A DNA stretch of 64,000 nucleotides from contig MU004186.1 in the NCBI GenBank assembly GCA_010093605.1, forward strand, positions 637,765-701,764, read 5' to 3'. The notes below the pieces were generated by a model that did no database searches, had not been told where the DNA came from, and worked only from the letters and a program-made list of their open reading frames with translations. Within the stretch, counting starts at the first letter, position 1; each line of letters starts with the position of its first letter. Both the position numbers and the translations under genes were made by a program. Below are positions 12,058 through 43,021 of this stretch, piece by piece. The stretch is from Lophium mytilinum (lineage: Eukaryota).

Positions 12058-12558
12058 TATGTATTGAAAAGCGCCATTCGTCGCCGAAGCAAGCCTAGGC
12101 AGCCACGTGTACGCCACCGTCGTGGGAGAAGCCCGAAGGTGGCTGGCTGGAAGACCTGGCGTGCCTGGCTGTAGTCCAGAACGAGCAAGCGACTCTTAAT
12201 CGACGCGGTACCTGGGGGCATTGTAGCGCTAAAATTCTTCGTAACTATAGCGCGTGCGCTTGTCAAGCCCACGGGAAGTAGCTCAGGGACAAGCTTTGCG
12301 CCCAGAGCGTTGCGCCCAGCCGACTCTTCGAGATGGGGAGCTACTGGGAGCCTGTGAGCCTGCCACCGTTGACAGCCATGGAATCAGGGGGCAAAGTCTT
12401 CAATATCCGCAAGTAATCCCCGTACAGGATTTTTACGCGTCCAGGGAGTTAGCGCGCAGATCAAGCCACAAAGTAGCCGCTGAACAGTAGCATTGTTGTG
12501 AAAGTGACGCCTCATAGCCTCGAAGTACCGTCCTTTTAGCAAAATAAGCTCCGACCGG

Positions 12559-13192
12559 TTACGAATCTGAGCGATGACCGGCGCGTTCCCAGGGCGTGTC
12601 GGGTTTCCGCCCTCTACCTCTAGGCTCTTCGTCTTCTCCATCTGATTCGTAGTCTCCACGTCGTAACCGGGCGAGTACAGTGTCCGCTATCCGTTGTCGC
12701 CTATGGTCTTGACGTCGTTTCCGAGCGTCATAACTCATCGCTTCCTCTTCCCTATCTTCCTCTTCGTTGCCAAGAAGAACTTCAAAATTAGCTGCGGCTT
12801 TGTCTTTCTCTCTTTGACTCCTTTCCCCTTTTTGAAATTGAAGGTAGTATTTTCTTCCTCTCAGCCTCAACTGCTCGTAATGGGAAATCGATCGATTCGG
12901 AGAATTAGGAGAACTCGGAGAACTCGGAGAACTAGGAGAACCGCCTATATCCACCTCCTTTCCGCGGATCTCGCCCAGAATCTCTGAAACCGATCTTTGC
13001 CGCATAGCTCCAGACGAAACACGAGTCAGCTGGCGCGGCGACCGGATTGTCGATTGGTCATCCTTCGTTACATGGCCATGCGCATCTTCTACTTCGACAT
13101 AGGCGTGAGTGGGCTTACCACCAAGGCTAGCCTCAATTCCCTTCAATGTCTCACTAGGTGCGCCTAGTAGGTGTGGGAAGTCGTTGTCGGAA
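12559..13192 (-). pseudogene. Original C-terminal ~210 codons of the large chimeric gene, cut off by the MITE at 13195-13398
   Basis: Removing the MITE plus one TA joins ...AATRA-Y-SDNDFPHLLGAPSETLKGIEASLGG... in frame with ORF 12559-13146. Confidence 0.75.
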
Positions 13193-13194
13193 TA

Positions 13195-13398
13195 CAGCAG
13201 TTCACTACGTCCGGTGACCTAGCGCGAAAACTGAGACGACCCCAGTCGACCACTTTTCCGGGCTAATGGTGATTTGGCTCAAAGACTGATTGGCTAGGAG
13301 GCTGCTAATTACCCTTAAGGCCGGCCGGAAAAGCTACCTTAAATGGTAAGTCTGTGGCTTGATTTTAGCGCTTGTTCACCGGACGTGGTGAACTGCTG
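13195..13398. mobile_element. 204-bp TA-flanked MITE with ~24-bp TIRs, inserted in the last exon of the chimeric gene
   Basis: TA|CAGCAGTTCACTACGTCCGGTGA ... TCACCGGACGTGGTGAACTGCTG|TA. Confidence 0.9.
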
Positions 13399-16300
13399 TA
13401 TGCTCTGGTGGCAGCATCTCTAGGATCGGTATTTTCCTCGACCTACGACATAACGTTAGCTCAGCTCTCAAGCGCTCGGTCCCCAGCAGTTTCGGGGTCC
13501 TGAGTCGCCTTTGGCGCAAGCAGTGGCAGGCGGCGATGGATAACCTACAATTTTAGAGTGGCAATACGGGCAGAATGCCCCGTCCTCAACTCTAGAATCG
13601 GTGTTTTCCTTGACCTAGGATATAATGTTAGCTAGCTCTTGAGAGCTTAGTCTCCAGCCATTTCGGGGTTCTTGCTCGCCCTGAGCGCAAGCAGTGGCAG
13701 GCAGCTGTGTGAACTAGGCTTTGTTGGATAACTTACAATTTTGGAGTGGCAATACGGGCAGAATGCCTCGTCCTCATGTCTGGAATCGATGTTGTCCTCG
13801 ACCTAAAACATGATATTAGCTCAGCTTTGAAGCGCTTGGTCCCCAGCAATTCTGGGGTTCTTGCTGGCCCTTGGTGCGCAAGAAGTGGCAGACAGTGGCG
13901 CGAAGTCAACATCTCCGGACAACTTACAATTTCCGTGAAATCAGAGTGGCACTTGGGGCATGAGAGCCCGTGCTCGTCGCTGTACCATTCGTTTTTGCAT
14001 TCGTGACAGAACATCAAGTCGCGCGCAGCTGTCTGTGGCTGTTGCGCCAGCTGTTGAGGTGATCGGTTCATGTTGGGCCGGACTTCATCACCTGTGATAT
14101 TGTCGTCTACCGTCTTCTTTAAGCTGCCAACCGGAAGGCTGCCCTTCCGATATTCGGCGCCCATCCTCTTCCACTCTGCGACATTTGGTACTCCAGCATT
14201 CTCAATAGCTTCATGGGCGTTAGGAATGATTTGTAGGGTTTCCATGTCCCGCATCTCTAGATACGATAACGGAATCAAGCCGGGGCCTCCCAGGCGAGTA
14301 ATAGGTTTCGCAACGACCCACTCCTTGTTAGATTGCGCGACGATAATGACGGCTTCACCGTTGGTAACGTCCATTTCGTCGGGCCCCGCGGCTTTGAAAT
14401 CGTATAAGACCTCCCCATACAAGGTGGCCCTGGGATCGGGTTTGGGCGCCGGCTCCAAGTGATCAGTCTCAGTATCTCTTGACGGTAGCCCTTGTTCCTC
14501 CTGTTCGCTTGCTTGCTGCGTGTCGTTTTCCTGGAGCTCAAGCTCAGCAAGACGCTGTCGCATCTGATTCTCGAGTTCCTCTTCTTGCTTCTTCTTCTTC
14601 TTAGCCTTCTCCTCCTCCTCCTTAGCCTTCTGCTCTTGAAGGAAAGCCTCCCAATCGGCCTTCTCCTTATCTTCCTGCTTCTTTTTTTCCATCTCAAGCT
14701 GAAAGATGAGCTCCTCTTTCTGCTGCTTGGCCTTTGCTGCGTCATCCGACTTCTTCCTCTCATACTCGGCAATGGCGCGGTCGCGAGCCTCCTTGGCCTT
14801 TGCTGCGTCATCCGACTTCTTCCTCTCATACTCGGCAACGGCGCGGTCGCGAGCCTCCTTCGCTTCAGCCTCCTCTTCGGCTTTCTCCTTCTGGTAGGCA
14901 TCGATAAGACGCTGTCTTTCCTTTTTCTCCTCCTCATCTCGTTGCTCTATCTTCTGATTATATTCGGCGATGATTCGTCCCCGCTCTTCATCTCGGTCTT
15001 TCGCTCGCTGCTCCCTCGCCCTTTCATCCCTCCCCTGCGTCAGCTTCCCGTCCGTGTATCTCGCTGTCTCTTCCCTGGTACGGTCTTTGGGGTCGTCTGC
15101 ATCTGGTTCGTTGCGGAAGTTTCCATCGAGTTGATCATCTCGCCTGGCTTCATTCTCAATTGCTTCCTGGGCGTAAGGATCGCCTCCTGCTTCTACGCCG
15201 TCGACTTCAATGTTGTAATCGCCTCCCAAAGGCCCAAAGGCACCAGTGTCTTCTGCGTGAAGGAATGAATCGAAGTCGAAATTTTCGGAGACATCAGGTC
15301 CATCGACTGGTGGGAAATCGAGGCTGTTAAACTATTCATTATCAGTGCTGTCGTCAAATCTCGTGATAAAGCGAATCCTACTTCTTCGCCCAGGCTTCCG
15401 AACGGAGCCCTAGGATTGTCCATAGGAGGTTGTTGTACTTGAGGTGCAGGTGCCGCAACGGACTGTTGCGATTGCACGTTGCCCTGTTGCCCGTTCTTCT
15501 GGCTTGGGTTGAACAAGTCCGCCCCCGGATTGTCCATGCGGAGGTTTCCCTCGAGTTGATCATCTCGTCTGGCTTCATTGAAGACCGATGAAGTTTCAAG
15601 GCTTCGTTGTGGTTTCTCCTTAGAGCTAGTTTGCTCTGCCCTTGCCACAGAAGCCGTCGCCGGTAAGACTACCCACTTAGGCATTTCCTCGATTTTCCTA
15701 ACTATGTGCCTTTGCAGTGCCAGTGCTGACTCATCGTTTCGGTGATACTTCTGCAACATGCGCGCTACATCATCCACAAAATCGCTCGTAGCCAAGTAAC
15801 CGCCACTCTTGAGCTTCTGTTCCATGGTCACCAGATCTAAAGGCTGTTTGGTGAGATCGAAGCCACGCGGAACTGCATCACCGATTACTGGCACCAGGAA
15901 AAGCCTCGCGAAGGACTCCGTTTTCATCTCGTCGAGAAGCTTGACCAAATCATTGTAGCTAGATCCAGATTGAGTAGCGTGAGTCGAAGCATTGTCGTTA
16001 CCTTCCTCATCTCCGTCCGAGTCGTCTATGGGCTTTACTTTGTCATGGTCATATTCGGCAGGATCTCTCCAAGCAGCCATAGTTTTGATTCCCCCTTCAA
16101 GCTTCCCGTCGAAGTGTGCAAGAAGATGGTCGTTCCGAGAATCCCAAGATCCAAAGTAATTGCCGCACAATCCGCATCTCCGGCTAAAAGTCGCCGCATA
16201 ATCTTGCTTCGATTGCTCTACTACCTCGTCCGCATCGGCATCAGGGTGGGTGTCTTTGATGTGTTGTAGCATCTTGTCGCGGCTACCAACGACGAACATC

Positions 16301-19300
16301 TTTTGGGGAGAGGCAGTCCTGCAGATCTCACATACCCAAAATTCCTGTGGCCAATGGGTTTCCTCGTGCTTTTTCCAATCGAACGCGTTTTTAGTTGTGT
16401 ATCCGCAGAGAACTGTAGACATATACTGTCCCCTCCTGGCCGTCCCAGGACAATCTTCTCTTGTACTGTTCCTGACACGCTCCGCGTACTTTTCGATAGC
16501 TTCACGAGCGTTTTGGGACACGTAGTCATAAGGAATAGTGTCCTCTGGCGACACGTTTCTTTTTCCAGTTCTTTCTTTGGCATCAGCCGGAAAGTCGAGG
16601 GGTTTGTCGAGATCAGTATCTGAGAAGAGTTCGTTAAGATTCTGACGTACAGCGTCAGTTGTTCGACGGTCGGTGCGCTCGAAGCTGCCCTCTTTAGTAG
16701 CGGCCTGGGTGGAGGAGGTATCCGTGGCTTTGGCCGAGTCGAGTATGCTTCCAGCCACTTCCTTCGTACCATCTGCGGCTGCTTTTTCCGCTACTTCTTC
16801 TTCCGACTTCTTGATCTTGGCACATAGCTCGGTATCCGGGAAGTGGTAAGTAAAGTCAACCTTCAAGTAGGGGCCACGAAGTAACGACTTAGCGGTAGGG
16901 CGTTCAGAAGGGTCGCTAAAGGCCATCCAATTAGCTCTGGGTACGGAGTGACGCCAATCTGACTTGAAGACTTACACCGTAAAGCAATCATAAAGAAACG
17001 CAATGCCATCCATACTAGCCGCTGCCATCACATCGTCGGGTATTGGTGGTGCTTCGCTGAGAGAACCAAGCTTGTAGATCGCAGCAACAGCCTCTTCTTT
17101 AGACCACGGTCTACGACCCGCCATCATCTCTAGCACGATGCATCCAAGGCTCCATATATCGGTCTTGTCAGAGTAGCCCTTCCCTGAACTACGGACAACT
17201 TCTGGCGCCATCCAGAATACGGCACCCGTCATATCTGAGGACTCTTCGTCGGGCAAGTCGCTCATTCTGGAGGTGTCGAAGTTAAGGCAAAGCTTGCAAG
17301 TACCGTCTCTTGTGTCGAGCTGTATTTCGTCTGCTTTGAGGCTCCTATGGAGGACGCCCTCACGATGTAGATACTCAAGCGCCTCTGTTGTCTGTCTAGT
17401 GACGTTACGAGTGACAGAATCTTCGAACTTGCCATATTTCCGAAGGAGAACTCCAATGGAAGAGCCTGGCACGTATTCTTCAAAGACTGTGAAACTACTT
17501 TTGCTCTCCTCTTGACCCAGGATCTGCACCAGGTTAGGGTGGTCAAGGTAAAGATAAAAGGTGTCGATTTCCATAGCCAGTCGCTTCTGGTACTCCTTTG
17601 ACCTGACGGCATACTCTTTCACTACAAGGAACTCTCCGCTTGTCATGTTGATGCCTAGATAAGCCCGGCAATGTGGCCCTTTGCTTATCATTTGTCCTTT
17701 TCTCCACGTGAGAGTCTTACCTTTTTTGTTGGTAGTGAGATGAGTGGTATCCGAACCCGAACCGTCTTGTCTCGATGCTGATGTTTCCGAGGCATTCGTT
17801 ATACTCCCCGCTTCTTTCATTCTGCCTGCACTAAAGTCCAGTTTATTCTCAAGTCCGACATCTGATGGCACTTCCGGCACCTTCTGGGACGGTTCACCAG
17901 CACTTGCATTGCCATAGCTGCCGGGTGGTCGCAGGGGAACCCCGAAAAGTGAGTCATTGCTTGACCCCCCAAAAAGTGAGTCGGTGCTTGACCGAGCATC
18001 TGGATTTTCAGAGACGCTGGAGGATTGTGGGGGAGGCTCAGGAAACGTTAGAGATCCTTTTGACCAAGAATTTTGAGATCCATGACTGCGCGCTTGCGGT
18101 GCATTACTGCTGGCCTGCGAGTCTTCATCTCTAGCACCACTCCTCGGTAAGGAAAAGCAGGCGATTGCCTCTAGATGATAGGCTAAGTGAGTTTGCATGC
18201 TCTCATCCGACGGGAGTTGCACTAAACAAAACGGGCACTTCTTCCGCTCGTCTATTAGATAAGTCTCTGCGACTTCTGCAACGTCAGCTACCTGCTCGTC
18301 GGTCATATCCTGCGGATGGTGCGACTTGAGGTGGTTTCGAAATCCGTCAGCTGAGCCAAAAACCGCGCCGGAATGCTCGAAACATTGCCAGGCTTTCCGG
18401 TGCGCGGATCCTTCGTGTTCAAGCCACTGGCGTCGGCTACTGAACATAGTATTGGACTCCGCACAGTCCGGATAAGTGCACATGTATGGTTGTAAGTCTT
18501 GAATGATATGAGCCCTGGTGGTTTGTGAGTACGGGCCAAGTGATATAACCCAAATGCGAGCCAAACGTACCTCCAAGATCGTCCCGTCCCGTGCCTAGGA
18601 GGACAGAGGACCATGCAGTACGGACAGACAAATCCAGATCCGGTACCAGCCCCTGGAGGGGGTGGGGGTAGATCAACTCCTTTCCCATCGAAATTGTACA
18701 CCGTGGTAGCATAAGAGACAACGGATTGAGTCTCCAGGAGGTCATCAAGCTTTTTGTCATAAGTAGTCGCCTCCGTCCCAGAGAAGATGGATCTCGAAAG
18801 AACGCTAGGCGTGGCGTCAAGCCTAATGAGCTTTTCGCGAACTGTCAGTCCGCCAGTGTCTAGGCCACGAGATTGGTGTTGCCGGGCTGACTGACTTTCT
18901 CCATCATGGTGTTGTTCGAAGGGTGTGTGGGCCGTAGCAAGTTTGCTTCCATGTCTTTTCCAATACCTGAACTGCTTACGCCGCCGAGTAATAGCTCGAC
19001 CCAGTCGATCTATCAGAAAAGAATTTTCGACTTCATCGCTAGAGCTAGACTTTTGCAGGCTATGTAGCAGCTCGGAGACGTAAAGAGAATCAAAGACTGC
19101 GTACTGGGAGTACAGCTCCACGCCAGTATCTGGGTCTACCTCGGTATATGTTGCAGTTTTTCTCGTTTTTGCTCTTGTCGTAGTGCTTCGTATCTTGAAA
19201 GACAGCTTATAAAGGTCTGCTATGATGTTGTTGATGCTTGATAAGCGCTGCCGCAGCTCTGATCTAGGAACAGCAGGCTCGTCTTCGGAATCCTCACTGG

Positions 19301-19664
19301 AAGTTTCGGAAGCCTCATCGTCGTCGTCAGAATCGCTTGTCTGCGTTTGTAGCTCGAAAGGTAATCTCGATCCTGATACAACCGCCGCGCTCTCGTCTAG
19401 ATTGCTTCGAAGCTGGTCTAGGAGCTTGATGACGTGCGCCTGCATGACACTTGATTCTCGAAGCCGGAAGTCCAAGGAGCCATGGCCTTGCTGAAGTGCC
19501 CCGAGGTTCCCCAGCCAAACCTTGTAACGACCGTGGTTCTCTTCGACTAGACTCGGGGGCATGTGGTCGAGGAGCTCCGGCTTGATACCAGGCTCGGTAA
19601 GTGCTTTGCGCAGCATCCCGAACAAACGGAAGCATGCTGCGCTGGCATCGTATATGGAGGCCAT
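13365..19664 (-). CDS. Large chimeric multidomain protein (~1,926 aa): helical N-terminal domain, C2H2 fingers, Bck1-like pseudokinase, second C2H2 cluster, Gcn5-like bromodomain, Som1-like segment, coiled coil, Bem1-like SH3-CI, RING-E3-type zinc ribbon plus duplicated CxxC micro-exons. Exons 19664-18571, 18514-16976, 16915-15382, 15331-13928, 13802-13737, 13614-13549, 13442-13365
   Basis: All six introns have GT(A)-donors and YAG acceptors, and each junction keeps the frame between ORFs 18303-19664, 16972-18576, 15193-16926 and 13733-15229 (checked by codon phase). Domain calls come from recognisable motifs. Confidence 0.8.
13420..13945. repeat. Tandem triplication of an intron+exon unit (~172-190 bp)
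   Basis: Three copies of intron GTA(A/G)GTT...TGCCACT(G/T)CTTGCGC...CCCC(G/A)...GCTAA(C/T)...TAG followed by exon GTC(G/A)AGGA(C/A)AA...CGAT; two complete 66-nt exons ending TTCTGCCCGTATTGCCACTC(C/T)AAAATT. Confidence 0.9.
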
Positions 19665-20148
19665 AAAGAGTGTTCGTAATGCATCAAATCTCCGAGCGGG
19701 CTCTTACAGCCCTTCTGGGTTTGTTGTGGTTGGCAAAGGCCCGTCTGGCGAGGCTGTGGTGGGATGAAGGATGCTTGGCCGCTGAGTCGAAATAGCAGGG
19801 GTACTAAAGCGGAACGAGCTATGCCTCTTTTGGCGACATTCACGTGAGATATATTTCTCTGAGGCCAAGAAAAACCGACATCAAAGGGTTTATGCTTGGA
19901 GAAACAATTTGTACTGACATGGATCATTCGACGCCTTTTTAGGTGGGCAAATTCGCAAACGAAAGTTGAAAGTTTTGTGCCCTTTTCAGCCCCCACCCAC
20001 GCTTTGCCGAGACGACGTTACGAAGCAAATCGCCTCTCCAAAACTCAGCCGTGCCACCTTTCCAAGTCAGCGTCCCCCGAGCGAAGGCTGAAATGGGCGT
20101 TCTGTTACGCCAGTCTCCGTCAGTTCTCCGAAGTCTGCAGCTGCTCCG

Positions 20149-21988
20149 ATGTCAGGCATCGAGATCGCCGGCCTCGTCCTGGGCGCGATACCTTTGGTAA
20201 TCGCAGGCCTCGAGTATTACGAGGAGGGCCTGGGAAAGGTGAAAGCGTTCTGGAAGTGGGAAGATGAACTCTCTGAAGCTATTCGCAAGCTTTGGGGCCA
20301 GTATAGCTCCTATGAGCTCACCATTCGCGGTCTTCTTGCGTCTATCACATCAGAGGCCGAGCTCGAGGAAATGATGGGCGACACCACCGGTAAACTTTGG
20401 AAGAGCGAAGACATGTGCGAAAGACTTCAGGAGAAGCTTGCAACTGCATATCAGCCATATTTATATACCGCGTCCGAGATAGAAAGGATTATCCTAGAGA
20501 TGACAGCGTGCCTAAATCTCAACAAAGCTACCCAGGTAAGAATATTGCCGTATCACGTTTACCATCGATGTTGACAAGAAATTAGATAACCCGCAATGAG
20601 CTCGAGGCAGTAGTAATTGCCAATCCCAGGATGATGAAGAGTGGCTCTTCTCGTGACTTCCAATTTCAAAAACGGATCAAATTCACCATGAAGAAGCAAA
20701 AGGTCAAACGACAACTAGAACAGTTGGAAAGTTGCATTGCCAGGCTTGATACCTTCACTGAAAAGGCTGAGAAGCTAGAACCATACAAAAGCAACAACAA
20801 GTCGAAATTCACAGTCCCTCTCCACCGCATACAGCAATATGCCAAAAGCTTGTACCAAGTTCTGAATCGATCCTGGGGTTGTGATGCTCATGCAAGTCAC
20901 GCGATCAATCTCTTATTAGAGCAACGGATGGTGCTTGCGAAAAAGAAAATGAGAAATTTGACATCTTCAATGGACAAGAGCTCCGACGGTGTCGCTCGCT
21001 TCGTGCTGTCGATTTCTGACCCTTCCTTACCTTCTGGATGGAGAGATGCTGAGGTTCAGGTCATGGAGGAGTCGGAAGTGTCAGCAAAGTACGTATAAAA
21101 CTTCTCCGGTGAGTGACTTATACGCGCTCACGCTCTGACTCGATACACAGTAGCAAGAGTAAAGTAAAAATCGCAGTCTCCCCGCCATCACCGACCACGC
21201 AGAGTGTCACGAATGCCCTCAAGGCACTCAAGGAGATCACGAGTGTCTGCTCGGCACTACAAAATTATCCGTTCGCTACGACGTGTCCAAGATTCTACTT
21301 AGACCATGACGGCAAACTCAAAGGGATATTTGGCGCACCAAAGCGGCTCACGGTCCATGACAGCAACTTCATGACTCTAGACGAACTGATTAGGGATGGT
21401 GCTATACCTGGTACGCAGAAACTGACTAAAGAAGAGGGCTATCTGCTCGCTGTGACGCTGTCCTCTTCTCTTCTACAACTTCATTCCACACCATGGCTGC
21501 GGAGCCGGTGGAGTAAGCGAGATATCTCCTTTTTAAAACTCACCCAGTCCCAAAAAGACAACGGCGGAAACCTTGTGCAAGTCAGATACCCCTATGTAAC
21601 GCAGGAGTGGTCTCCACAAGATCTCAGCGCTCAAGATCCTCTATCCGATGTAGAAGGCGATAGCTCGAAACTCCTCGCTCTTGGGATAGTTCTTCTGGAA
21701 ATCTACTTCAACCAGCCCATTGAGAGTCTCCGTGCCAAAACATCCAGCGGTATTTCTCAACAACCAAACGATTATGAGGACCTCAGTATTGCCAATCGCT
21801 GGGTTAGACGGGAAAAAGGGAATCTATCGTGGGCCTTTCAAAATGCAGTCTCGCATTGTTTGAAGTGCTTTGCGGACCCAAACGCCGATCTTCAAGATCC
21901 AGACTTTCGCCAAGGAGTGATTGATGAGGTACTTATTCCTCTCCAGGACGAATTGTCTCTTTGGACGGATGGACCCCCAAGAGGATAG
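20149..21988 (+). CDS. Protein with HeLo-like/4-helix-bundle N-terminus and C-terminal kinase-like lobe (DUF7580-type as recalled); exons 20149-20535, 20586-21088, 21151-21988
   Basis: N-terminus MSGIEIAGLVLGAIPLVIAGLEYY; C-terminus LAVTLSSSLLQLHSTPWL..WSKRDISF, YPYV, LLALGIVLLEI, AFQNAVSHCLKC, FRQGVIDEVLIPL. Both introns preserve frame. Confidence 0.82.
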
Positions 21989-22920
21989 CGTCATGAAACG
22001 TCATAGCCTTAACCTGATACTTTGTTTGGCGTACCTTGCGCCACCTTCGCGCGCTTCACACAAACAAGCGCTATCTGGAACACGAGCACTGCACAGGCCC
22101 ACAGTACTACCCGTGGACATCAAGCGGTGCCAAGTGCCAGTCTCGAGTTTCAAAAAAACGGCTATTGTAGTCTCCTAGAAAGGAGCTTTGGAGCGTTATA
22201 TAATGGTGGAGGGGCCGGGGAGGAAGACGATATTACGGTCCCGAGATTTTGCAGGATGGGGTAGAGAAATAATATAGGAAAGGTGGGAGAGGAGACAGAA
22301 GGGTAGGTATATACGAAGCTGCACAGGAAGTCCCTAAGGGAATAAGAGCAATGGGTCTTGATTGTATAAATCCATACTACTCAGCTGAGTATACAGCAAA
22401 CATGAAAAATCTAGTAGAGGTTGGGGGTTCTCTATTTAAAGGAGCAGGTCTACAAGCTCCTGCCACGTGCCCTGTGGTTGCTCAAGGCATGGATGCATCC
22501 TCCAATGTTTCTATTTTCGCCATCATCGGTCACCGCAGTGGCGTTTCTATTGTAACTACTATTTACACAGCCCGAACCCCTTGTACGACAGCGCACCAGG
22601 TACTGCCTCGTGAAACATTGAGCACCATTGGGCTCTCCTTGAAGAGGATAAGTTGATCCTGGGCTCAAATTGGTCGTTTTCACACCTTACTGATTTTATT
22701 TCACATCCTCCCGCCCCCTGAACTTGATCAAGCTCTCGTGCGCAAAAATTGAGCCCGATTTCCGCTATTCAAAAACTAAATCATATTTGATGCTTGCGAC
22801 AGCCCCTTAATCGTTCTCTCAGTGGTCCCTACTTCCTATGTGTTTCTAGACTGGTTTCTCGCTGATTATCTGCTTCCTAGTTCACTGTTCGATTACTTCC
22901 ATTCCTTTTTTCTGGTTACT

Positions 22921-23951
22921 ATGGCCACGTTCGACCCGAACCAATGGTACCGTGTTACCACTGGTATCGACGTGAACCCCGGCCTCGCCATGGACGGCAC
23001 ATCCCTCTACCACGCCGGCCGCGGCTCCGTCCTCTTCAAATTGACAGACACCACAGACAGCGAGGAGCAGTGGCAAATCTTCCCCGTTAACGACTCGACC
23101 TACATATTGCGTACGAAAGCCTCGGGGCCTGGAGGATTTCTAGGCGCTTCATACTCTGCCAACGAGACAGAACCGGGGAACACGCGCCCGCGCATGGCGA
23201 ACCTCACGCTCAGCGATAAGACTATGTATTGGTCATTTACGTCGGCGGGAAATGGCTTGTTCTTCATGTCCAACGAGCAGAATGGGACCGGGTGGCGTTT
23301 ACATATGAAGGAGACCGGATTGATGTCGATTAGTGGGAACACGACGGCAACACAAAATGAGCAGGGTTTTATGTTCAAGGAGATTGGGCCGATTGATAAT
23401 GGAGAGTTTTCGAGTTTAAATGTGAGTAGGTTGGTGATGGACTCTGGGTTTGGGTTAGTGTGCTAACGCCGATGCTGTAGACTGCTGCTTATTCTGTCGC
23501 TGCGACAGTAGCTCCGAGTAGTTATACTACTCTAGCTTCATTATCCGCAACGTCTACATCGTCCGCAACGTCTACATCAGCCACAACGTCTAACTCATCT
23601 GCAACATCTACATTATCGGTTTCGCACAGCCTCTCCACAGGAGCATCTATAGCAATTGGATTTGTCGTTGGGTTTGCTGTTTTGACAGCAATAATAGCGT
23701 TGGTATGGCTACTTCTTCGAAGGAGAAGTCGAGCGCGCGCAAATATTCAGCATATGTCGGCATGCCCACAACACCCGCCACAAGAGTTGGATATATCTCA
23801 CGAGAGGCAAGAGATGCCAATCTCATATGCTACAGTCAAATACGAAATGGCCGCGCTACCCTCGGAGCTCCATGGGGATGCCGTAGTTGTACCAGTTGAA
23901 CCGAAGAACAAGTGTGAAGGTAAACCCCACAAGCGACGTAAGGAACAATAG
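22921..23951 (+). CDS. Single-pass membrane protein: beta-rich (ricin-B/beta-trefoil-like) N-domain, Ser/Thr stalk, TM, short tail; intron 23422-23480
   Basis: MATFDPNQWYRV...EEQWQIFP...MYWSF; intron GTGAGT...CTAAC...TAG in phase 0; SLSTGASIAIGFVVGFAVLTAIIALVWLLLRRRSR. Confidence 0.7.
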
Positions 23952-36567: not shown

Positions 36568-38443
36568 CTACACCAGCCTTATGCTTTCTCTAGGTTCTTT
36601 AAATGCGTCCATCGAATCCTTTACAAAAATCCTGCCCAACCCGATTCTTTCATATGTATTCGTGTTCTCTTTGCATTTCCTGAGGAGTAGCACTTCTCTA
36701 ATTGGATCAGCAGTACGGTTAGGGGGATGAGACAGCCGCAGCCGGGTACTGATCTGGATGCAGGAGACCACCGCGCCCGCTTCAATCAATGACTCATAGT
36801 CAGTTTTGAGATCAATCATACAGTACCCTGGATTGGAGTACTCTGCAGTGCTCGAGTCTTGACCCTCGATATGCCGTCTTCCTCTAACAAACGATAGAAG
36901 CCCGCATCCTGTGCCCTTATAATTCCAATCATGGGATGCCTTAGCGAACTTTTGCCTGCAAGCGTGGTCCGAAGAGATCTTACGCACTTCGGCTATGTCT
37001 AGACAGCCTCGAATTACGAGATCATTGCGGACGAGTCGTCCAGTAAACTCAGGTCCATCCCAATCGCACTGTAACTTTTCAACCTCGGCATTTAGTACAT
37101 ACTCGACTCTGGTTATTATATCTTTCGTGCGTCGGTGGTCAATTGCTTCGTTGACTGACAGCCAGGACCACGATGGCATAGGGAATTCGTAACTGTGAAA
37201 CCGCGTTCCAAGGTCGGAGGCGTTCCAAAGTAATCCAAGAATCAAATCACTTTTCCAAAGCCCTAGAACTGGTATATCTTTGGTCCGCTGGGCGAAATAC
37301 TTTATCACGCCGGTGATTGCCGCCAACCGATCAGACTCATAGGTGAGTTGCCTTCTTGTGTAATCCTCGATCCAACGCCACCATTGAGCCTGCGATATAT
37401 CATCGCTGGATCTAGTTCTAACGTAAAAGGAATCAGCAAGCAGATCCTCCCCTTCGTGGGTCACCATCTGCACCCTGGTCTTGCATCCCCACTGGAGTAC
37501 TGGTGCACAGAAGGTTATCGATCTAAAAGAAAGAAGATCCTCTTGAAATGCCCAAGCCCGACCGTAGAGTGGAGAGTCTAATATTTGCAACTTGCGATAG
37601 ATTTCCTCTTTCCACTTTTGTTCTTGTGTAAACCAGTCATTTCTCAAGAATCCGTCTTGACAGTCAGCAGCTGAGGCAGCCGTAATCGTTATGGACGCGT
37701 TCTGATAGACTGAAGCCATTTTCCCAGCTTCGATAGCCCAGTCCCCTGGATGTGTCCTAATGCCATCGTCGTCTTCCAACAATACCTTCTGAATGATGCA
37801 CAATGCATCGACGTAAAGGTATTGAAGACCGAGCTCCCAGGTGACGAAGATGGCGTCTTGGATTGTCCGCGGCAGACGGTTCCATGGTATGCATTTCTTA
37901 TGCTCTTCTAGCCTATTGATGGTAGTTTTGTAATTGGCCCCCGAGGTCCCCCAGCAGTACGACAAAGCAGCATAACTACCCTTTTTCCCGTCTCTCAATA
38001 AGACGAATTGAGTCTATCTCGTTTGCCTGGCCAACGTCAATGACCCTGGTGGGTAAAGTAGTGATGCCGACTCGAGACGAGCCACATCTGGGATGGTCTG
38101 CGTTGCACTTATCAACCCATTTCCGTACAGAAGAAAGAAGTAGAGTGACTTTATCATCTAGGAGAAGGGCCTCTAAATGCGCGCCATTAGATGAAACAGC
38201 TGGAGCCAACGAGACCGAGGAATCACTGTCATCGGGTCCTAGATCAGCTCTTTTGCTCAGGTTCTCTGATATGATTCGACTTCTGCTAGAGTTCTTCAAA
38301 TGGCCTTTTGCGAGGAGCAAGGGCTTTGTCGACTCCTCCGAGTCGCTGATGGGCAGTCGCCGGCGTTTGTTCGGAGGTGGCCCCACCGGCATGGGATGAT
38401 TCCAAGGGCTCCTTCGTGGCCTCTTGGATTGGTAGCCTGACAT
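36568..38443 (-). pseudogene. Heterokaryon-incompatibility (HET) domain gene with a frameshift at ~37990
   Basis: WVDKCNADHPRC...LPTRVIDV...IRLIE in one frame; YAALSYCWG, LPRTIQDAI, YVDALCIIQ, MASVYQNA, RAWAFQE, RQLTYESDRLAA, PSWSW in another. No intron signals at the shift. Confidence 0.8.
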
Positions 38444-39331: not shown

Positions 39332-42300
39332 CTACTTTCCACTTCGTCCTCCCAACTTGGCAAGCAACCTCTTCTGAGTATCGCCTAACCTCACGAATGG
39401 CAGAGTCTTCTCCGTCGGCTGCGGCAAGAAGCCCACCTCAATCAGGAACGCAAGATACACCTCCACCGTCTGCAGTTCTACCGCTGCTCCCTTCGAAACG
39501 TCATGACCAGTCCACTTGGCATCCAGCTTAAGCGCCTTCGCTGCGTTAGCGTCGTCGAGTTCCGGGGCGCGCGTGTCGCTGGGCAAATCGCCGGTGACGA
39601 AGTGGTAGAGAGGTAACAGTGCATGCTCCTCCTTGCCCTCTCGGATGTAATCATCTAGCTTCTGCTTCCATTCCTCGTATGATACTTTCTTAACCCCATA
39701 GGCAGCTAGTGCCTCGGTGAATTGATTGAATGTCAGGCGGGGATGCGAAGTGACTTGGGCAACACCAAGGGGCTCTGTTGGTGGGTAGAAAGAGGTTGCC
39801 ACGACCACGCGAGCCACGTGCGTGACAGGAACCATGTTGACGGTGTTATTCATATCGATGGACACGCCGATTTGGATGCTGCCTTTCAGCATACGGACGA
39901 GGAAATCATCCGTATTGGTAGCTGGTGAATGTTAGCCTTGCACGTCCTCAAGGATGAAGTCCAAATGAGATAGGTAACTCACTTCCTTTCTCCGGATCGC
40001 CAGTCACATAACCTGGCCTGATAATACACCCTTTCAGGCCTCTTTTTCCAGCGGCGCGGACGAGATATTCGGCAGCCCACTTGCTCTGGCCGTAGCCGGA
40101 TCCGAGACCCTTCCTCGACCCTTCTAGATCATCGGCTTCGCTGACTCCAGCACCGCCTTCCGCAATGCTCTGCTCTGACACCTTGATATAGTGCTCATTG
40201 TCAAGAACAGATGTCGAGCTGACGAACCCGAGCTGCTTGGCCTTTCCTGTCGCACACAAGGAGAGGATGGTCATGGTACTGAGGACGTTCGGGGCACGTA
40301 GTCGCGAGTAGGGAAGAACCCAATGGACTAGTGCTCCATTGTGAATAACCACATCTACGGTGTCTGCGAGCCGATTCCAGACGTCCGGGGCGAGTCCAAA
40401 GTTTGCTTTTTCGAGATCGCCAGGCAAGCACTCCAATCGAGACTTCCAGTTGTTACTCCAGACATCCCATATACCGTAAGCTTGGCAGATATCCGTAATT
40501 CTGCTGAGCGCTGCTTCTCCGTCTTTCGCTCGCACAAGGGCAACGACTTTGACTGTTGGAGATTTCCTAGACAGCAGATCTTGAAGGATGAAAGCCCCTA
40601 AGAAGCCTGTAGCTCCAGTAAGGAACACAGTATGCTCCTTTGTAGGATCCAGGTCGCGGGCTTCGAACTTCTCGATCAATTGCTTGCTGAGATCTCTTGC
40701 GTCGGCTGAATAATCTTCGTCTTCTGGGTCGTCATCAACCGCCTCGCCGACGTCAAGTCGAAGACCGACAGGATCTAATGCTTGGTCTACATTCGCTGAG
40801 AAGCCACGAAGTGTTGGGTATTGAAAAATGATGGACATCGGGACATCGATATCCCTCCACTTCTTCCTCACAGCCATAAGCATTTGTTGGGCAATAATGC
40901 TATGGCCACCAAGGTCAAAGAAAGAGTCGCTTCCGCCAATGCTATCTGGGTTTACTCCCCGGATTAAGTTGGCCCAGATTTCGGCCACGGCCTTCTCTGT
41001 TGGCGTGAGTGCTTTGCCCAATTGTGAAGGCCTTCGAGCTCCGGCAGCGGCTAATTGTCCTGGCTCGGGGAAAGGTAATGCGGGACGGTCAATCTTCCCA
41101 TTAGGGTTCAAAGGGAAACGGCTGAGCGGAACCAAGACGGACGGAACAGCATACGCTGGTAGCTTCTTTTTCAAGTGCTCCCTTACGTCGTCTCGCAGAA
41201 ATTTGAAACGCTTCAACATGCCTACCATGCTGGTGTCAGTCGAGTCATCGATCCTACCATGGTCTTCGAGCCATTGATACCACCGCTTCATTTCGGGAAC
41301 GATGTAGCCTTGGCGCGTTAGCATACGGTTGCAACCATAGTCTGAAGTAATACTACTCACTAACGAGTGTCGGTTCTTCGTAAGCGTCACGCTTCAGCAG
41401 GGTGACATTCTCCCGAACTAACGGGTGGGCGGCAAGATGGGAATCGATTTCTCCCAATTCGATCCGGAACCCGCGAATTTTGACCTGTGAATCAACCCGT
41501 CCCGAGCAGTGCACGTTTCCATGCTCATCGTAATATCCCAAGTCACCAGAACGGTACAACCTGTCCCTTGGGCCCTTCCAGAACTCCCGCCATGGGGCAG
41601 GGTTCTCAGCTGCTTTGACGTTATCCTCCTTAACCCATTTCTCGTTGTCGACAAACCAGTTCTTGACAAATTTCTCAGATGTCAGGTCTGGAAGCCCTAG
41701 ATATTCTTCTGCTAGACCTCCTGCACGAACATATATTTCGCCACTCTGTCCCACCTTGCATATTTTGGTTCGGTCCTCACGGTCGACGACAAGTAGTTGG
41801 ACGTTGTTCATACCTCGTCCCGCAGGAATGACTTCGGGCATCGTATCCAGGAAGTCAGGCGAGTCATTACGGCTAGGAAGCTCGTAATAGCTCACCGCTC
41901 GCTGGGTTTCTGTGGTTCCGTACATGTTCACGATCCGCACATTTGGAGCCAGCTCCTGCAACCTTCTGCAATCCCGCTTGATGAGCAAATCCCCGACGAA
42001 GAACGAGTGGTGCAGGCTTTCGAAGATTGCTGCCGCGCCCCCGACCAGAATTTGTCCCATGGCAGGTGTCAGGTGGGTTACAGTCGGCTTGTACTTCCGC
42101 ATCCATTCAGCTAGCTTCTCATGCTGGATGTCTTCTTTGCTTGGGACAAGCAATTGTGCTCCGAGGAAAAGCGGCGTGAATATGTCCCGCTGAATAGGAT
42201 CATGGGCTATACCTGAAAGCATCGTGAACCTGTCATTGTCCGAAAGTCCGAACCTCTCGGCCATCCACGGAAAGTAATGTGTCAGCGAGAAGTGCCGTCC

Positions 42301-43021
42301 TCTGACGCCCTTTGGACGCCCTTCAGAGCCAGATGTAAAAGACAATGTCGGCGTCGAGTCTGGGCCGACAACAACGGGTGTGAACGTGTCTAGTTTCTGC
42401 TGCTCATCTAGACAGTCTTGCTCATTGACCTGCCCTCCTACCACTGTTCCATCATCAGCGAGACGTAGGCCAGGAACTTCCGTGCGCAGATCTAGATGTT
42501 CCGATATATATGAGCGAACTTGCTCGGACAGGGGCCCTGCTTCTTGTGTGGCTTTGTCGATAACCACTAGGGCTCGTGGTTGGGAGACTTCTAGGTATAT
42601 GCACTGACGGTCAGGAGGGTATCTGGGAAGAAACAAGTCTGTTAGCATCCGAAATAAGACGTTCACAATGTGAAAGGCCTTACAGAGGATCTAGAACAGA
42701 GAACGTGGCTCCCGCAGCCAAAGCAGCCATGATTGCAACCACCAGATCAACACCTCGGTGGGCAAAGATCATGACCACATCTCCCCGCTGTATGCCGCGT
42801 TCTACGAAGTGAGTAGCTAGAATTGCAGATGCCCTATAAATCTGCTTGTACGTGAATTCGCGCTGCGGTGAGGAACTCGAGGCCGTCTCAACCACACATG
42901 TTCGCTCTGCGTACTGTCCTTGGGCATTTCGTCCAAAGATATCGAAGATAGACCCCTTGAAATCCGACCAGTATAGATCCGCGGTGGGATCCGGCAGTAC
43001 TGGCCCAGACTCCATGGCCAT
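39332..43021 (-). CDS. LYS2: L-aminoadipate-semialdehyde dehydrogenase (alpha-aminoadipate reductase; A-T-R domains), multi-exon
   Basis: [10 protein letters not shown] start; [65 protein letters not shown], reductase [10 protein letters not shown] and GYGQSKW. Confidence 0.96.

Follow-up and report, generated by a model that had tools for sequence, protein, structure and literature searches.

A 64,000-nucleotide stretch of the genome of the dothideomycete Lophium mytilinum (assembly GCA_010093605.1, contig MU004186.1, positions 637,765 to 701,764; hereafter the window, numbered from its first letter) carries two divergent genes that represent a conserved head-to-head two-gene module of filamentous ascomycetes, the two families of which co-diverge. 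The left gene encodes an N-terminal module (N-module) and C2H2 fingers, followed in this species by a degenerate kinase and tail derived from Bck1, a bromodomain and tail derived from Gcn5, a Bem1-type SH3 domain with its Cdc42-interacting (CI) extension, and a zinc ribbon. The right gene encodes a protein with a DUF7580 domain. It is plausible, if somewhat short of probable, that the conserved pair consists of a modular sensor, predicted by modelling to bind an MLKL-like partner, with a logic of input and output that we infer from their architecture.

Gene models were built from open reading frames (ORFs) and splice signals. A first-pass annotation, made from the letters of the sequence, had described a divergent pair with start codons at 19664 and 20149, and this is confirmed by the spliced models, by the lengths of the deposited proteins and by the introns skipped in the contigs of a public sequencing run. 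The features of the locus are as follows.

13365 to 19664, minus strand: left gene (BU16DRAFT_537163, P0001), 7 exons, ATG at 19664, 1926 aa.
19664-18571, 18514-16976, 16915-15382, 15331-13928, 13802-13737, 13614-13549 and 13442-13365, minus strand: exons of the left gene in the spliced model.
20149 to 21988, plus strand: right gene (BU16DRAFT_316252, P0271), 3 exons, ATG at 20149, 575 aa.
20149-20535, 20586-21088 and 21151-21988, plus strand: exons of the right gene in the spliced model.
19665 to 20148, no strand: shared intergenic region, a putative bidirectional promoter, 484 bp between the divergent ATGs.

The best database match of the exon 2 translation from the left gene is BU16DRAFT_537163 itself, a protein of 1926 aa, at 100% identity. 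Both models have the lengths of the deposited proteins, the left model also agrees with its deposited counterpart by eye, and its stop codon is at 13367-13365. Transcript evidence comes from the contigs of one public run (X1), the kind of which is recorded only as a guess, 'RNA?'. This run contains 88% of the words sampled from 12400-22100, and its contigs skip all eight of the predicted introns exactly, at GT..AG borders (CT..AC on the opposite strand). In the left gene the skips are 56, 60, 50, 125, 122 and 106 nt long, and in the right gene 50 and 62 nt. In one contig of 6578 nt, the joined exons 1-3 of the left gene are continuous with the spacer and the entire right gene, while further contigs hold the exon 3-4 joint and the exon 4-7 joints of the left gene, and all 30 depth bins are covered. 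This is the appearance of spliced transcripts. Both genes are real, and their spliced forms are present in the contigs of the public run.

Confirmation of a single spliced transcript for the left gene had also been proposed. The intron skips bear out the splicing, but the gene as a whole is not covered by one contig, the breaks at 14582-14809 lying within an internal repeat. The X1 sequence is continuous over 15485-22100, spacer included, for which overlapping 5' ends, antisense transcripts or DNA in the library are possible causes; a contig that crosses two genes is not proof of one transcript. Since no single contig spans the left gene, and the composition of its product is implausible at first sight, the mosaic could be suspected of being an assembly chimera, or an artefact of a gene model that fuses several genes. 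Against this, the exons are joined across the contigs at the predicted borders, and a model built independently agrees with the deposited protein in length and by eye. The contigs with their precise intron skips dispose of an assembly chimera, which is rejected on these joints and on the deposited protein, and the explanation as a whole retains next to no credibility.

The conservation of the pair was assessed in 79 N-module loci on metagenome contigs, identified with an alignment of the module and its 8 closest sequences. Partners were sought by tblastn with seven DUF7580 proteins. The N-module is at, or within about 240 nt of, the contig end in 23 of these loci, leaving 56 that have at least 460 nt upstream and are testable. 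An opposite-strand DUF7580-type match is present upstream in 52 of the 56, and three of the four loci without one have merely 461-510 nt of upstream sequence. Dereplication at 90% nucleotide identity gives 38 clusters; all 35 that have at least 700 nt upstream contain a head-to-head DUF7580-type match, and the recurrent linkage of the two families that had been predicted for other genomes is therefore upheld. In 32 of the 35, the start-to-start gap is 259-652 bp, compared with the 484 bp of the L. mytilinum pair. The position of the matches serves as an internal control: each of the 564 high-scoring segment pairs (HSPs) is upstream on the opposite strand, and none is elsewhere in the 616,663 bp searched. 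The identities of N-module and partner covary (Mantel r 0.60 over 21 pairs, a value that 0 of 2000 permutations reach), which indicates that the pair is inherited as a unit.

Sequence between the genes is also partly shared. Among 29 shared spacers, those of the window and of 28 related loci, 14 contain the motif ACCCCGC and 12 contain AAGGCTG, where 100 mononucleotide shuffles give a maximum of 10 and a mean maximum of 7.4. By eye, AAGGCTGA is present approximately 60 nt upstream of the ATG of the right gene in the window.

At the paired loci, C-termini were read from 63 ORFs, which come from 26 of the 79 loci and were hand-selected among the 166 ORFs of 100 codons or more that lie behind the module in 29 loci. 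These sensors end in Macro, ankyrin, TPR, CBM_21, SesA with ULD_2, or degenerate kinase domains. Such differences between the C-termini of paired genes indicate that the pairing follows the N-module and not the tail.

The conserved part of the left protein comprises two regions.

18633 to 19664, minus strand: N-module, residues 1-344, a helical bundle with the motifs GRxxVWxGNLGA and SLDxRLR.
18169 to 18632, minus strand: C2H2 finger region, residues ~345-480, interrupted by intron 1 immediately behind the conserved 'WR'.

The description of the N-module as a widespread fungal module is amply supported. A search with exon 1 (364 aa) returned 2338 cluster representatives at E<=1e-3, of which 163 are at E<=1e-30. 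Many of the predicted relatives in the database terminate exactly at the conserved 'WR', which is the site of intron 1. The closest relatives of the module are P0121 (60%) and P0122 (53%), and the named relatives are from the Dothideomycetes, Sordariomycetes and Eurotiomycetes, all of them uncharacterised. The family PF26082 (zf-C2H2_AcuF) is in the precomputed Pfam lists of P0001 and 14 of 17 long relatives, and the CxxC...H...H pattern is kept in the family alignment; Pfam-A scans of the left protein made here did not match PF26082. The AlphaFold2 (AF2) model of the N-module is a helical bundle with a predicted local distance difference test score (pLDDT) of 72, rising above 90 over residues 1-110. 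Foldseek found no match to this model in the PDB at E<=0.001, and in the ESM Atlas the matches are unnamed ascomycete clusters only. The top rows from the exhaustive aligner VIA are N-terminal domains of plant receptors of the nucleotide-binding leucine-rich repeat type (NLRs), namely the SD of Sw-5b (Z 11.2) and the coiled-coil (CC) domain of Rx (Z 10.8), followed lower down by the CC-R domain of NRG1 (8.8), MLKL (8.7), AtMLKL3 (8.4) and the HeLo domain of HET-S (7.3).

Behind this module the family is highly variable. Pfam domains were surveyed in 72 of the 150 N-module representatives listed, comprising 70 of at least 700 aa and the two closest short ones (P0121 and P0122). The C-termini are Macro in 20, NACHT/NPHP3_N or NB-ARC in 11, TPR, WD40 or ankyrin only in 8, Pkinase in 7 (one with FHA), DUF6590 in 3, AAA in 2, HET in 1 and other domains in 3, with 17 having none that is recognisable. 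Occasional extra pieces in the family are PAH, HSF, RRM, EVH1-like, GDH2_N and RA. Single pieces of housekeeping regulators are seen in other members as CBM_21, PAH, the HSF DNA-binding domain, GDH2_N, RA and FHA with a kinase (L016:11003-12571; P0126, P0158, P0215, P0262, P0133). We take the CBM_21 to be of the kind in protein phosphatase 1 (PP1) regulatory subunits, and the PAH to be as in Sin3. These 72 members, together with the paired metagenome loci, agree with the expectation that relatives of the left gene would carry variable C-termini. The term 'NACHT-less analogue' calls for qualification: neither P0001 nor P0271 has a nucleotide-binding (NB) domain, but the family includes the NACHT, NB-ARC and HET domains counted above. 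An excerpt of one study places zf-C2H2_AcuF, together with HET and ankyrin, among the most copy-variable families of the N. crassa pangenome (PMC13412767), and this fits with a conflict-related role.

The partner protein likewise has two recognisable regions.

20149 to 20535, plus strand: N-terminus, a hydrophobic, Gly-rich first helix (MSGxExAGxxLGxxPL) and then further helices, identified by conservation.
20823 to 21958, plus strand: DUF7580 domain (PF24476), residues 209-566.

PF24476 matches P0271 with 96.3 bits against a cut-off of 27 (E 3.4e-27), and exon 3 alone with 88.3 bits. Relatives of the same length are found in Glonium stellatum (56%), Endocarpon, Lobaria, Echria and Rhinocladiella. 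In the literature searched no mention of DUF7580 or PF24476 was found; PF26082 is mentioned. All 50 of the Foldseek matches listed for the P0271 model, from at least 500, are protein kinases or kinase-like (E 4e-3 to 1.2e-2), with the MLKL pseudokinase at rank 17. VIA aligns 150-196 residues over approximately 260-570 with Z 9-10, best to kinases of the tyrosine kinase-like (TKL) type, and the nearest solved folds to this domain are BRAF, TNNI3K and Pto. By eye, and with no structure-based alignment, the GxGxxG, VAIK, HRD and DFG motifs are not readable in the partner alignment, where 'H-x-TPW' and 'K-x-D-I' stand at the expected place of a catalytic loop. The N-terminus is conserved in 20 partner N-termini from other loci, and its ESM Atlas features are like those of HeLo clusters (0.93, 176 of 256 features, 7 of 30 hits).

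With low confidence, therefore, the C-terminal half of the partner is modelled as a kinase-like fold, and a kinase-fold domain behind a HeLo-like helical N-terminus, the MLKL-like layout, is what the models support. Both labels that the first-pass annotation had given to this protein, a HeLo/MLKL-like N-terminus and a kinase-like lobe, are weakly supported: the first by the ESM Atlas features and the second by the kinase matches and the VIA scores of a low-confidence model. What tells against them is given below.

Modelling of the two proteins together had been proposed as a check on the pair, and it favours binding. The complex of the N-module (364 aa) and the full partner (575 aa) was predicted with no use of their own alignments and has an ipSAE of 0.77 (0.76-0.77 in three runs), compared with 0.00 for the best of 3 controls. 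The runs share at least 74% of their contacts, and the partner has a pLDDT of at least 75. In calibration, 51 of 78 solved complexes and 2 of 108 mismatched pairs attained the mark for this score. The predicted interface involves N-module residues 38-58, which contain the GRxxVWxGNLGA motif, 72-84 and 134-164, and, in the partner, the N-terminal helices 32-61, residues 519-524 and residues 564-574, which form the final helix in the kinase-like domain. According to these models the N-module would bind its partner through its most conserved motif.

The conservation of the pair is also compatible with a different role, in which the C2H2 protein binds DNA or chromatin, the DUF7580 pseudokinase is its cofactor or anchor, the pair controls transcription or signalling, for example in stress or secondary metabolism, and the C-termini are ordinary regulatory domains. 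The C2H2 fingers are conserved in the family, many of its C-termini are related to chromatin or DNA (HSF, PAH, Myb, HMG, RPA_C-like and bromodomain), and the ACCCCGC motif, more frequent in the spacers than in any of the shuffles, is compatible with autoregulation. The name zf-C2H2_AcuF presumably derives from a gene of a biosynthetic cluster, which would also count towards this role. Yet the same family carries NACHT, NB-ARC, HET, SesA, Macro and arrays of ankyrin, TPR or WD40 repeats, which together are the fungal toolkit of non-self recognition, and a hydrophobic Gly-rich first helix with HeLo-like features is unexpected in a nuclear cofactor. The high copy variability of the family, as given in the excerpt of the pangenome study (PMC13412767), is a further point against a regulatory pair, and such a role for the genes is considered rather unlikely.

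The variable part of the left protein in L. mytilinum is a unique, fast-evolved, open-frame mosaic of Bck1 kinase, Gcn5 bromodomain and Bem1 SH3-CI copies with a zinc ribbon. Its parts are listed in the order of translation.

16807 to 17712, minus strand: Bck1-derived pseudokinase and Bck1 C-terminal tail, residues 633-914, including intron 2.
16111 to 16413, minus strand: second C2H2-like Cys/His region, residues 1046-1146, read from the sequence.
15664 to 15984, minus strand: Gcn5-derived bromodomain and Gcn5 C-terminal tail, from profile and Pfam matches.
15257 to 15331, minus strand: acidic FDFDSFL piece at the start of exon 4, read from the sequence.
14462 to 15064, minus strand: Lys/Glu-rich low-complexity stretch, coiled-coil-like by eye only.
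14120 to 14434, minus strand: Bem1-type second SH3 domain and CI extension, from matches to solved structures.
13928 to 14014, minus strand: zinc ribbon (Zn_ribbon_19), of a kind known from the N-termini of RING E3 ligases.
13365 to 13927, minus strand: three tandem intron and exon units, each with a CPYCHSKI half-ribbon, ending at the stop codon 13367-13365.

Several of these pieces had been recognised by the first-pass annotation, and the Bck1, Gcn5 and Bem1 assignments are each substantiated. For the Bck1 piece, Pfam Pkinase matches residues 637-895 of the full protein (E 5e-43), and identity to true Bck1/Mkh1-type mitogen-activated protein kinase kinase kinases (MAPKKKs) of many ascomycetes is 53-58%. 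The alignment with Bck1 of Mytilinidion resinicola, at 55% identity, runs from the start of the kinase domain to the final residues. Compared with that protein, HRD has become HRS, the catalytic-loop N is E, DFG is NFD and the G-loop GKGTFGRV is SKGPHCRA, while the beta3 Lys and the APE motif are retained. The best solved matches of the bromodomain piece are fungal Gcn5 8xuw_A (1.4e-12) and 9ynv_N (1.1e-11), where the alignment extends to residue 402 of the 405 in the chain, and Pfam Bromodomain matches residues 1203-1266 (E 8.7e-7). This piece reaches the Gcn5 C-terminus; relative to fungal Gcn5, its acetyl-lysine-binding Asn is His ('KYN' to 'KYH') and 'ADYY', with the Tyr of the ZA loop, is 'PRGF'. 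Judged by the replaced residues, neither copy would be expected to act as its parent does, as an active Bck1/Mkh1 MAPKKK or as a reader of acetyl-lysine, and the loss of catalytic and ligand residues from the kinase and bromodomain that had been noted is thus real. The SH3 piece matches 2rqv_A at 1.4e-20 over 105 residues with the CI part included, 2rqw_A at 4.9e-20 and 2kym_A at 7.5e-18; other SH3 domains match at 7.5e-5 or worse, making the piece Bem1-specific. Pfam SH3_1 covers residues 1697-1743 of the full protein (E 2.1e-9).

The remaining pieces are less distinct. A zinc ribbon of RING E3 type had been named and does have a Zn_ribbon_19 match over residues 1829-1857, although this is weak, at 30.9 bits against a cut-off of 30.8. 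The second C2H2-like region (residues 1046-1146) has no Pfam family. For the FDFDSFL piece, the earlier label of a Som1/Flo8 C-terminus is not confirmed, and the motif was not found in the literature searched.

Repeats occur in several parts of the tail. A recent tandem duplication of two 66-bp copies, at 14726-14860 within the Lys/Glu-rich stretch, was detected by Tandem Repeats Finder (TRF) with 98% matches, and the motif NEARRDDQL(E/D)GN recurs at 15579-15514 and 15154-15089. The three intron and exon units, of ~190 nt, were not reported by TRF; by direct alignment their mean column identity is 79%, and all three of their introns are spliced out in the X1 contigs.

Among the long proteins listed, the fingers are combined with a Bck1-type kinase only in P0001, the other 119 being ordinary Bck1 with approximately half of the query covered. 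When the mosaic C-terminal 1400 residues were compared with the 150 N-module representatives, the only likeness found was the 25-28% similarity that is generic for kinases. The mosaic copy was also placed in a tree together with 24 Bck1 kinase domains; its branch there is 3.99 substitutions per site against a median of 0.05, some 80 times longer, and on account of this length the tree gives it no firm position among the Bck1 clades. In a simple simulation with substitutions placed at random, at 0.27 per site, the kinase piece was still stop-free in 0.05% of 2000 trials, and the 1407-codon tail in 0 of 2000. The tail is thus no appendix left to neutral decay, and a simple neutral pseudogene tail is rejected, as the frame is open where no simulated tail stayed free of stops. 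That the frame is open despite the residue losses, as first described, holds for the whole 1407-codon tail and its correctly spliced introns.

It could nevertheless be that the pair is functional and that the tail in L. mytilinum is an accident, a set of lineage-specific duplicated gene fragments that is tolerated and not used, with function confined to the N-module, the fingers and the partner. The mosaic is unique, its pieces being combined in no other protein listed, and the long kinase branch, the lost catalytic and ligand residues, the long low-complexity linkers between pieces and the structural churn that is ongoing in the 66-bp repeat and the three intron and exon units are all in keeping with this. 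It accounts less well for the open frame and its simulated improbability, for the correct splicing of all the tail introns, the three duplicated ones included, for an SH3-CI piece that is still Bem1-specific in its match to yeast Bem1, and for the relatives that also carry single pieces of housekeeping regulators (CBM_21, PAH, HSF, GDH2_N, RA and FHA with kinase). An accidental tail is possible but not likely.

Beyond the stop codon the left gene does not continue. The first-pass annotation had extended it to 12559 and had seen a possible Eaf1 piece there; neither is confirmed, the gene stopping at 13365 and the ORF at 12559-13218 (minus strand) lying behind the stop codon, outside the gene, with no tool in support of the Eaf1 label. 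This ORF is a 219-codon open frame, Ser-Pro and Arg/Glu-rich, with no Pfam family in the Pfam scan, and it may be 3' untranslated region, an alternative last exon or a separate small gene. A 992-nt X1 contig covers 12400-13025. By the stop codon, a stretch of ~210 bp at 13192-13400 is matched by a separate X1 contig of depth 333 with two base differences and with unlike flanks on both sides, which points to a second copy expressed elsewhere and a small repeat in the 3' region. An Rfam scan of 12300-13600 found no Rfam family.

On the other side of the pair, the ORF adjoining the right gene, at 22780-23466 (plus strand), has a weak ricin-B-lectin-like match that is below the cut-off (E 8.8e-4). 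Behind it is a Ser/Thr-rich ORF, in which a hydrophobic stretch is, by eye, a possible membrane span. Further away, approximately 15 kb from the pair, is a large ORF with a HET domain at 36568-38013 (minus strand, E 9.2e-22). At 39948-42690 (minus strand) is a gene resembling those of non-ribosomal peptide synthetases (NRPS), of the carboxylic-acid-reductase type, with AMP-binding, PP-binding and NAD_binding_4 domains in two adjacent ORFs.

A mobile origin has also to be considered, with the two genes as a selfish unit, such as a toxin and antidote, a killer or a cargo-capturing element, that spreads and collects fragments of host genes. This would suit a pair that is inherited as a unit and has captured such fragments, the recurrence of the stretch at 13192-13400 elsewhere in the transcript contigs, and the patchy occurrence of close partner homologues, for which only 7 long relatives were found, in distant classes. 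The neighbours in the window are ordinary genes, though, and no transposase, integrase or reverse-transcriptase domain is present in the large window ORFs or the loci scanned, in which terminal repeats and target-site duplications were not searched for. A selfish unit is judged improbable.

If the sensor and its partner work as proposed, the left protein would be the input subunit, its variable C-terminus perceiving a cue. The N-module would hold or release the MLKL-like partner, which might then act on membranes or trigger a cell-death or defence response. In L. mytilinum the cue could be something that binds or modifies look-alikes of hubs in cell-wall integrity, chromatin and polarity. The division into sensor and executor that was originally suggested is partly supported, by the recurrent pairing, the variable C-termini, the predicted binding and the MLKL-like layout, and it has become testable in an entire gene family instead of a single unusual locus. 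Decoy function and cell death are what we infer beyond this.

There are several points that weigh against the proposal. Both families are functionally uncharacterised, and the C2H2 fingers are equally compatible with a DNA-binding regulator. The likeness of the N-module to CC and four-helix bundle domains (Z 8-11) is within the range of unrelated helical bundles, so that it is not decisive and would serve as a lead only. Macro, the commonest C-terminus of the family, suggests that the ancestral input was the sensing of ADP-ribose rather than decoys. The mosaic is without an orthologue, and its very long kinase branch also fits with relaxed constraint. On the side of the partner, the AF2 model is poor, with a mean pLDDT of 57 and values below 50 over residues 1-37, and the long helices that it shows at the N-terminus are of low confidence; a profile of the partner against PDB sequences gave no solved kinases and no hits at all at E<=10, and none of 21 partner N-termini matched the HeLo, SesA or Helo_like Pfam models at E<=1. 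The score of the complex is a measure of model confidence, obtained without the proteins' own alignments. The linkage sample was seeded by two peptide patterns of one subfamily, from the N-module side only, and has exceptions: in L054 the partner is 2.6 kb away, and L028, of the same cluster, has no match within 9.8 kb; the gap is ~836 bp in L058-60; and L070-74 have a weak partial match only (3.6e-5). L028 and L054 are otherwise near-identical loci, both with a TPR C-terminus, and their difference points to an insertion at one locus and to a lost partner at the other.

A more far-reaching claim, which we consider unlikely as it stands, is that these genes form an undescribed, widespread two-component surveillance system of ascomycetes. 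In it, a DUF7580 MLKL-like executioner would be controlled by a sensor with lineage-swapped input (Macro, NLR modules, repeats or kinases), the input in L. mytilinum being an integrated-decoy chain of cell-wall-integrity MAPKKK, SAGA acetyl-lysine reader and Cdc42 polarity scaffold. If this were true, it would be the first integrated-decoy receptor that is independent of an NB domain and, outside plants, the first to be paired with a dedicated executor. Should the proposal of a sensor and an MLKL-like partner hold in its plainer form, the pair would represent a third route to regulated cell death in fungi, in which a folded adaptor docks onto an MLKL-like protein, the two routes described being all-in-one NLRs and amyloid-coupled NLR/HeLo clusters. 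The fusion of copies of host hubs to a sensor would then have arisen independently of NLRs. DUF7580 and zf-C2H2_AcuF, both of them uncharacterised families of Pfam, are given a testable joint function, and the dozens of natural sensor variants with one shared output are a convenient system for the study of how input is coupled to an executioner. Even if the reading as cell death is wrong, it is a solid result of comparative genomics that two unstudied families are strictly conserved head-to-head and co-diverge, and neither finding was met in the literature searched.

The pieces of the mosaic can be compared with their parents, the Bck1/Mkh1 MAPKKK, the histone acetyltransferase Gcn5 and the polarity scaffold Bem1. 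Domain homology is clear, and the Bck1 and Gcn5 copies include the C-terminal tails. In contrast to the parents, the copies are fragments only, with catalytic and ligand residues replaced and with extreme divergence; the true Bck1 of a relative is a separate protein of 1808 aa.

The partner, according to the models, would resemble MLKL, the plant MLKLs and the fungal HELL-kinase proteins in having a helical N-terminus with HeLo-like features and then a kinase fold in which no canonical catalytic motifs could be read by eye. According to an excerpt of a 2025 review, HELL domains of fungi are in some cases joined to a kinase or pseudokinase domain (PMC12881547). P0271 differs from this group in having no Pfam HeLo, HELL or SesA match and no sequence similarity to solved kinases, and in being accompanied by a conserved divergent partner gene in place of a known activating kinase.

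Housekeeping kinases on receptor-like proteins have a precedent in the Sordariales, where, according to an excerpt, a CHK-2-derived Pkinase on NLRs is proposed as an integrated decoy and head-to-head NLR pairs are rare (PMC12258605). The N-module member P0133, with FHA and Pkinase, is similar in this respect. The Sordariales proteins are complete NACHT NLRs with single such domains, whereas the carrier in L. mytilinum is without an NB domain, its kinase is derived from Bck1, the putative executor is a protein other than an NLR, and the genes are paired as a rule. The fungal NLR and effector clusters of the nwd2/het-S type also couple receptor and HeLo-type executioner genes, with variable receptor architectures, in the excerpts of two sources (PMC12881547, PMC4344463). 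Their coupling is through a short amyloid motif, where for the present pair it is predicted to be through a folded helical module that binds the partner, and most of the sensors here (61 of the 72 scanned) are without an NB domain.

Plants offer a further parallel in gene arrangement. RGA4/RGA5, RRS1/RPS4 and Pik-1/Pik-2 are paired plant NLRs with integrated decoys. The integrated-decoy concept for such pairs is set out in an excerpt of PMC12258605. As in those pairs, the genes in L. mytilinum are head-to-head and have a short putative promoter region in common; copies of host proteins are fused to one of the two products, the other being presumed to act as the output subunit. The differences are that Pfam scans found no NB-ARC or NACHT domain in P0001 or P0271, that the output partner is predicted to be a kinase fold with helices and is not an NLR, and that several unrelated host-derived pieces are joined in a chain. 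The head-to-head order, as in the plant pairs, is conserved in relatives, in all 35 dereplicated clusters with at least 700 nt upstream and without exception among the HSPs.

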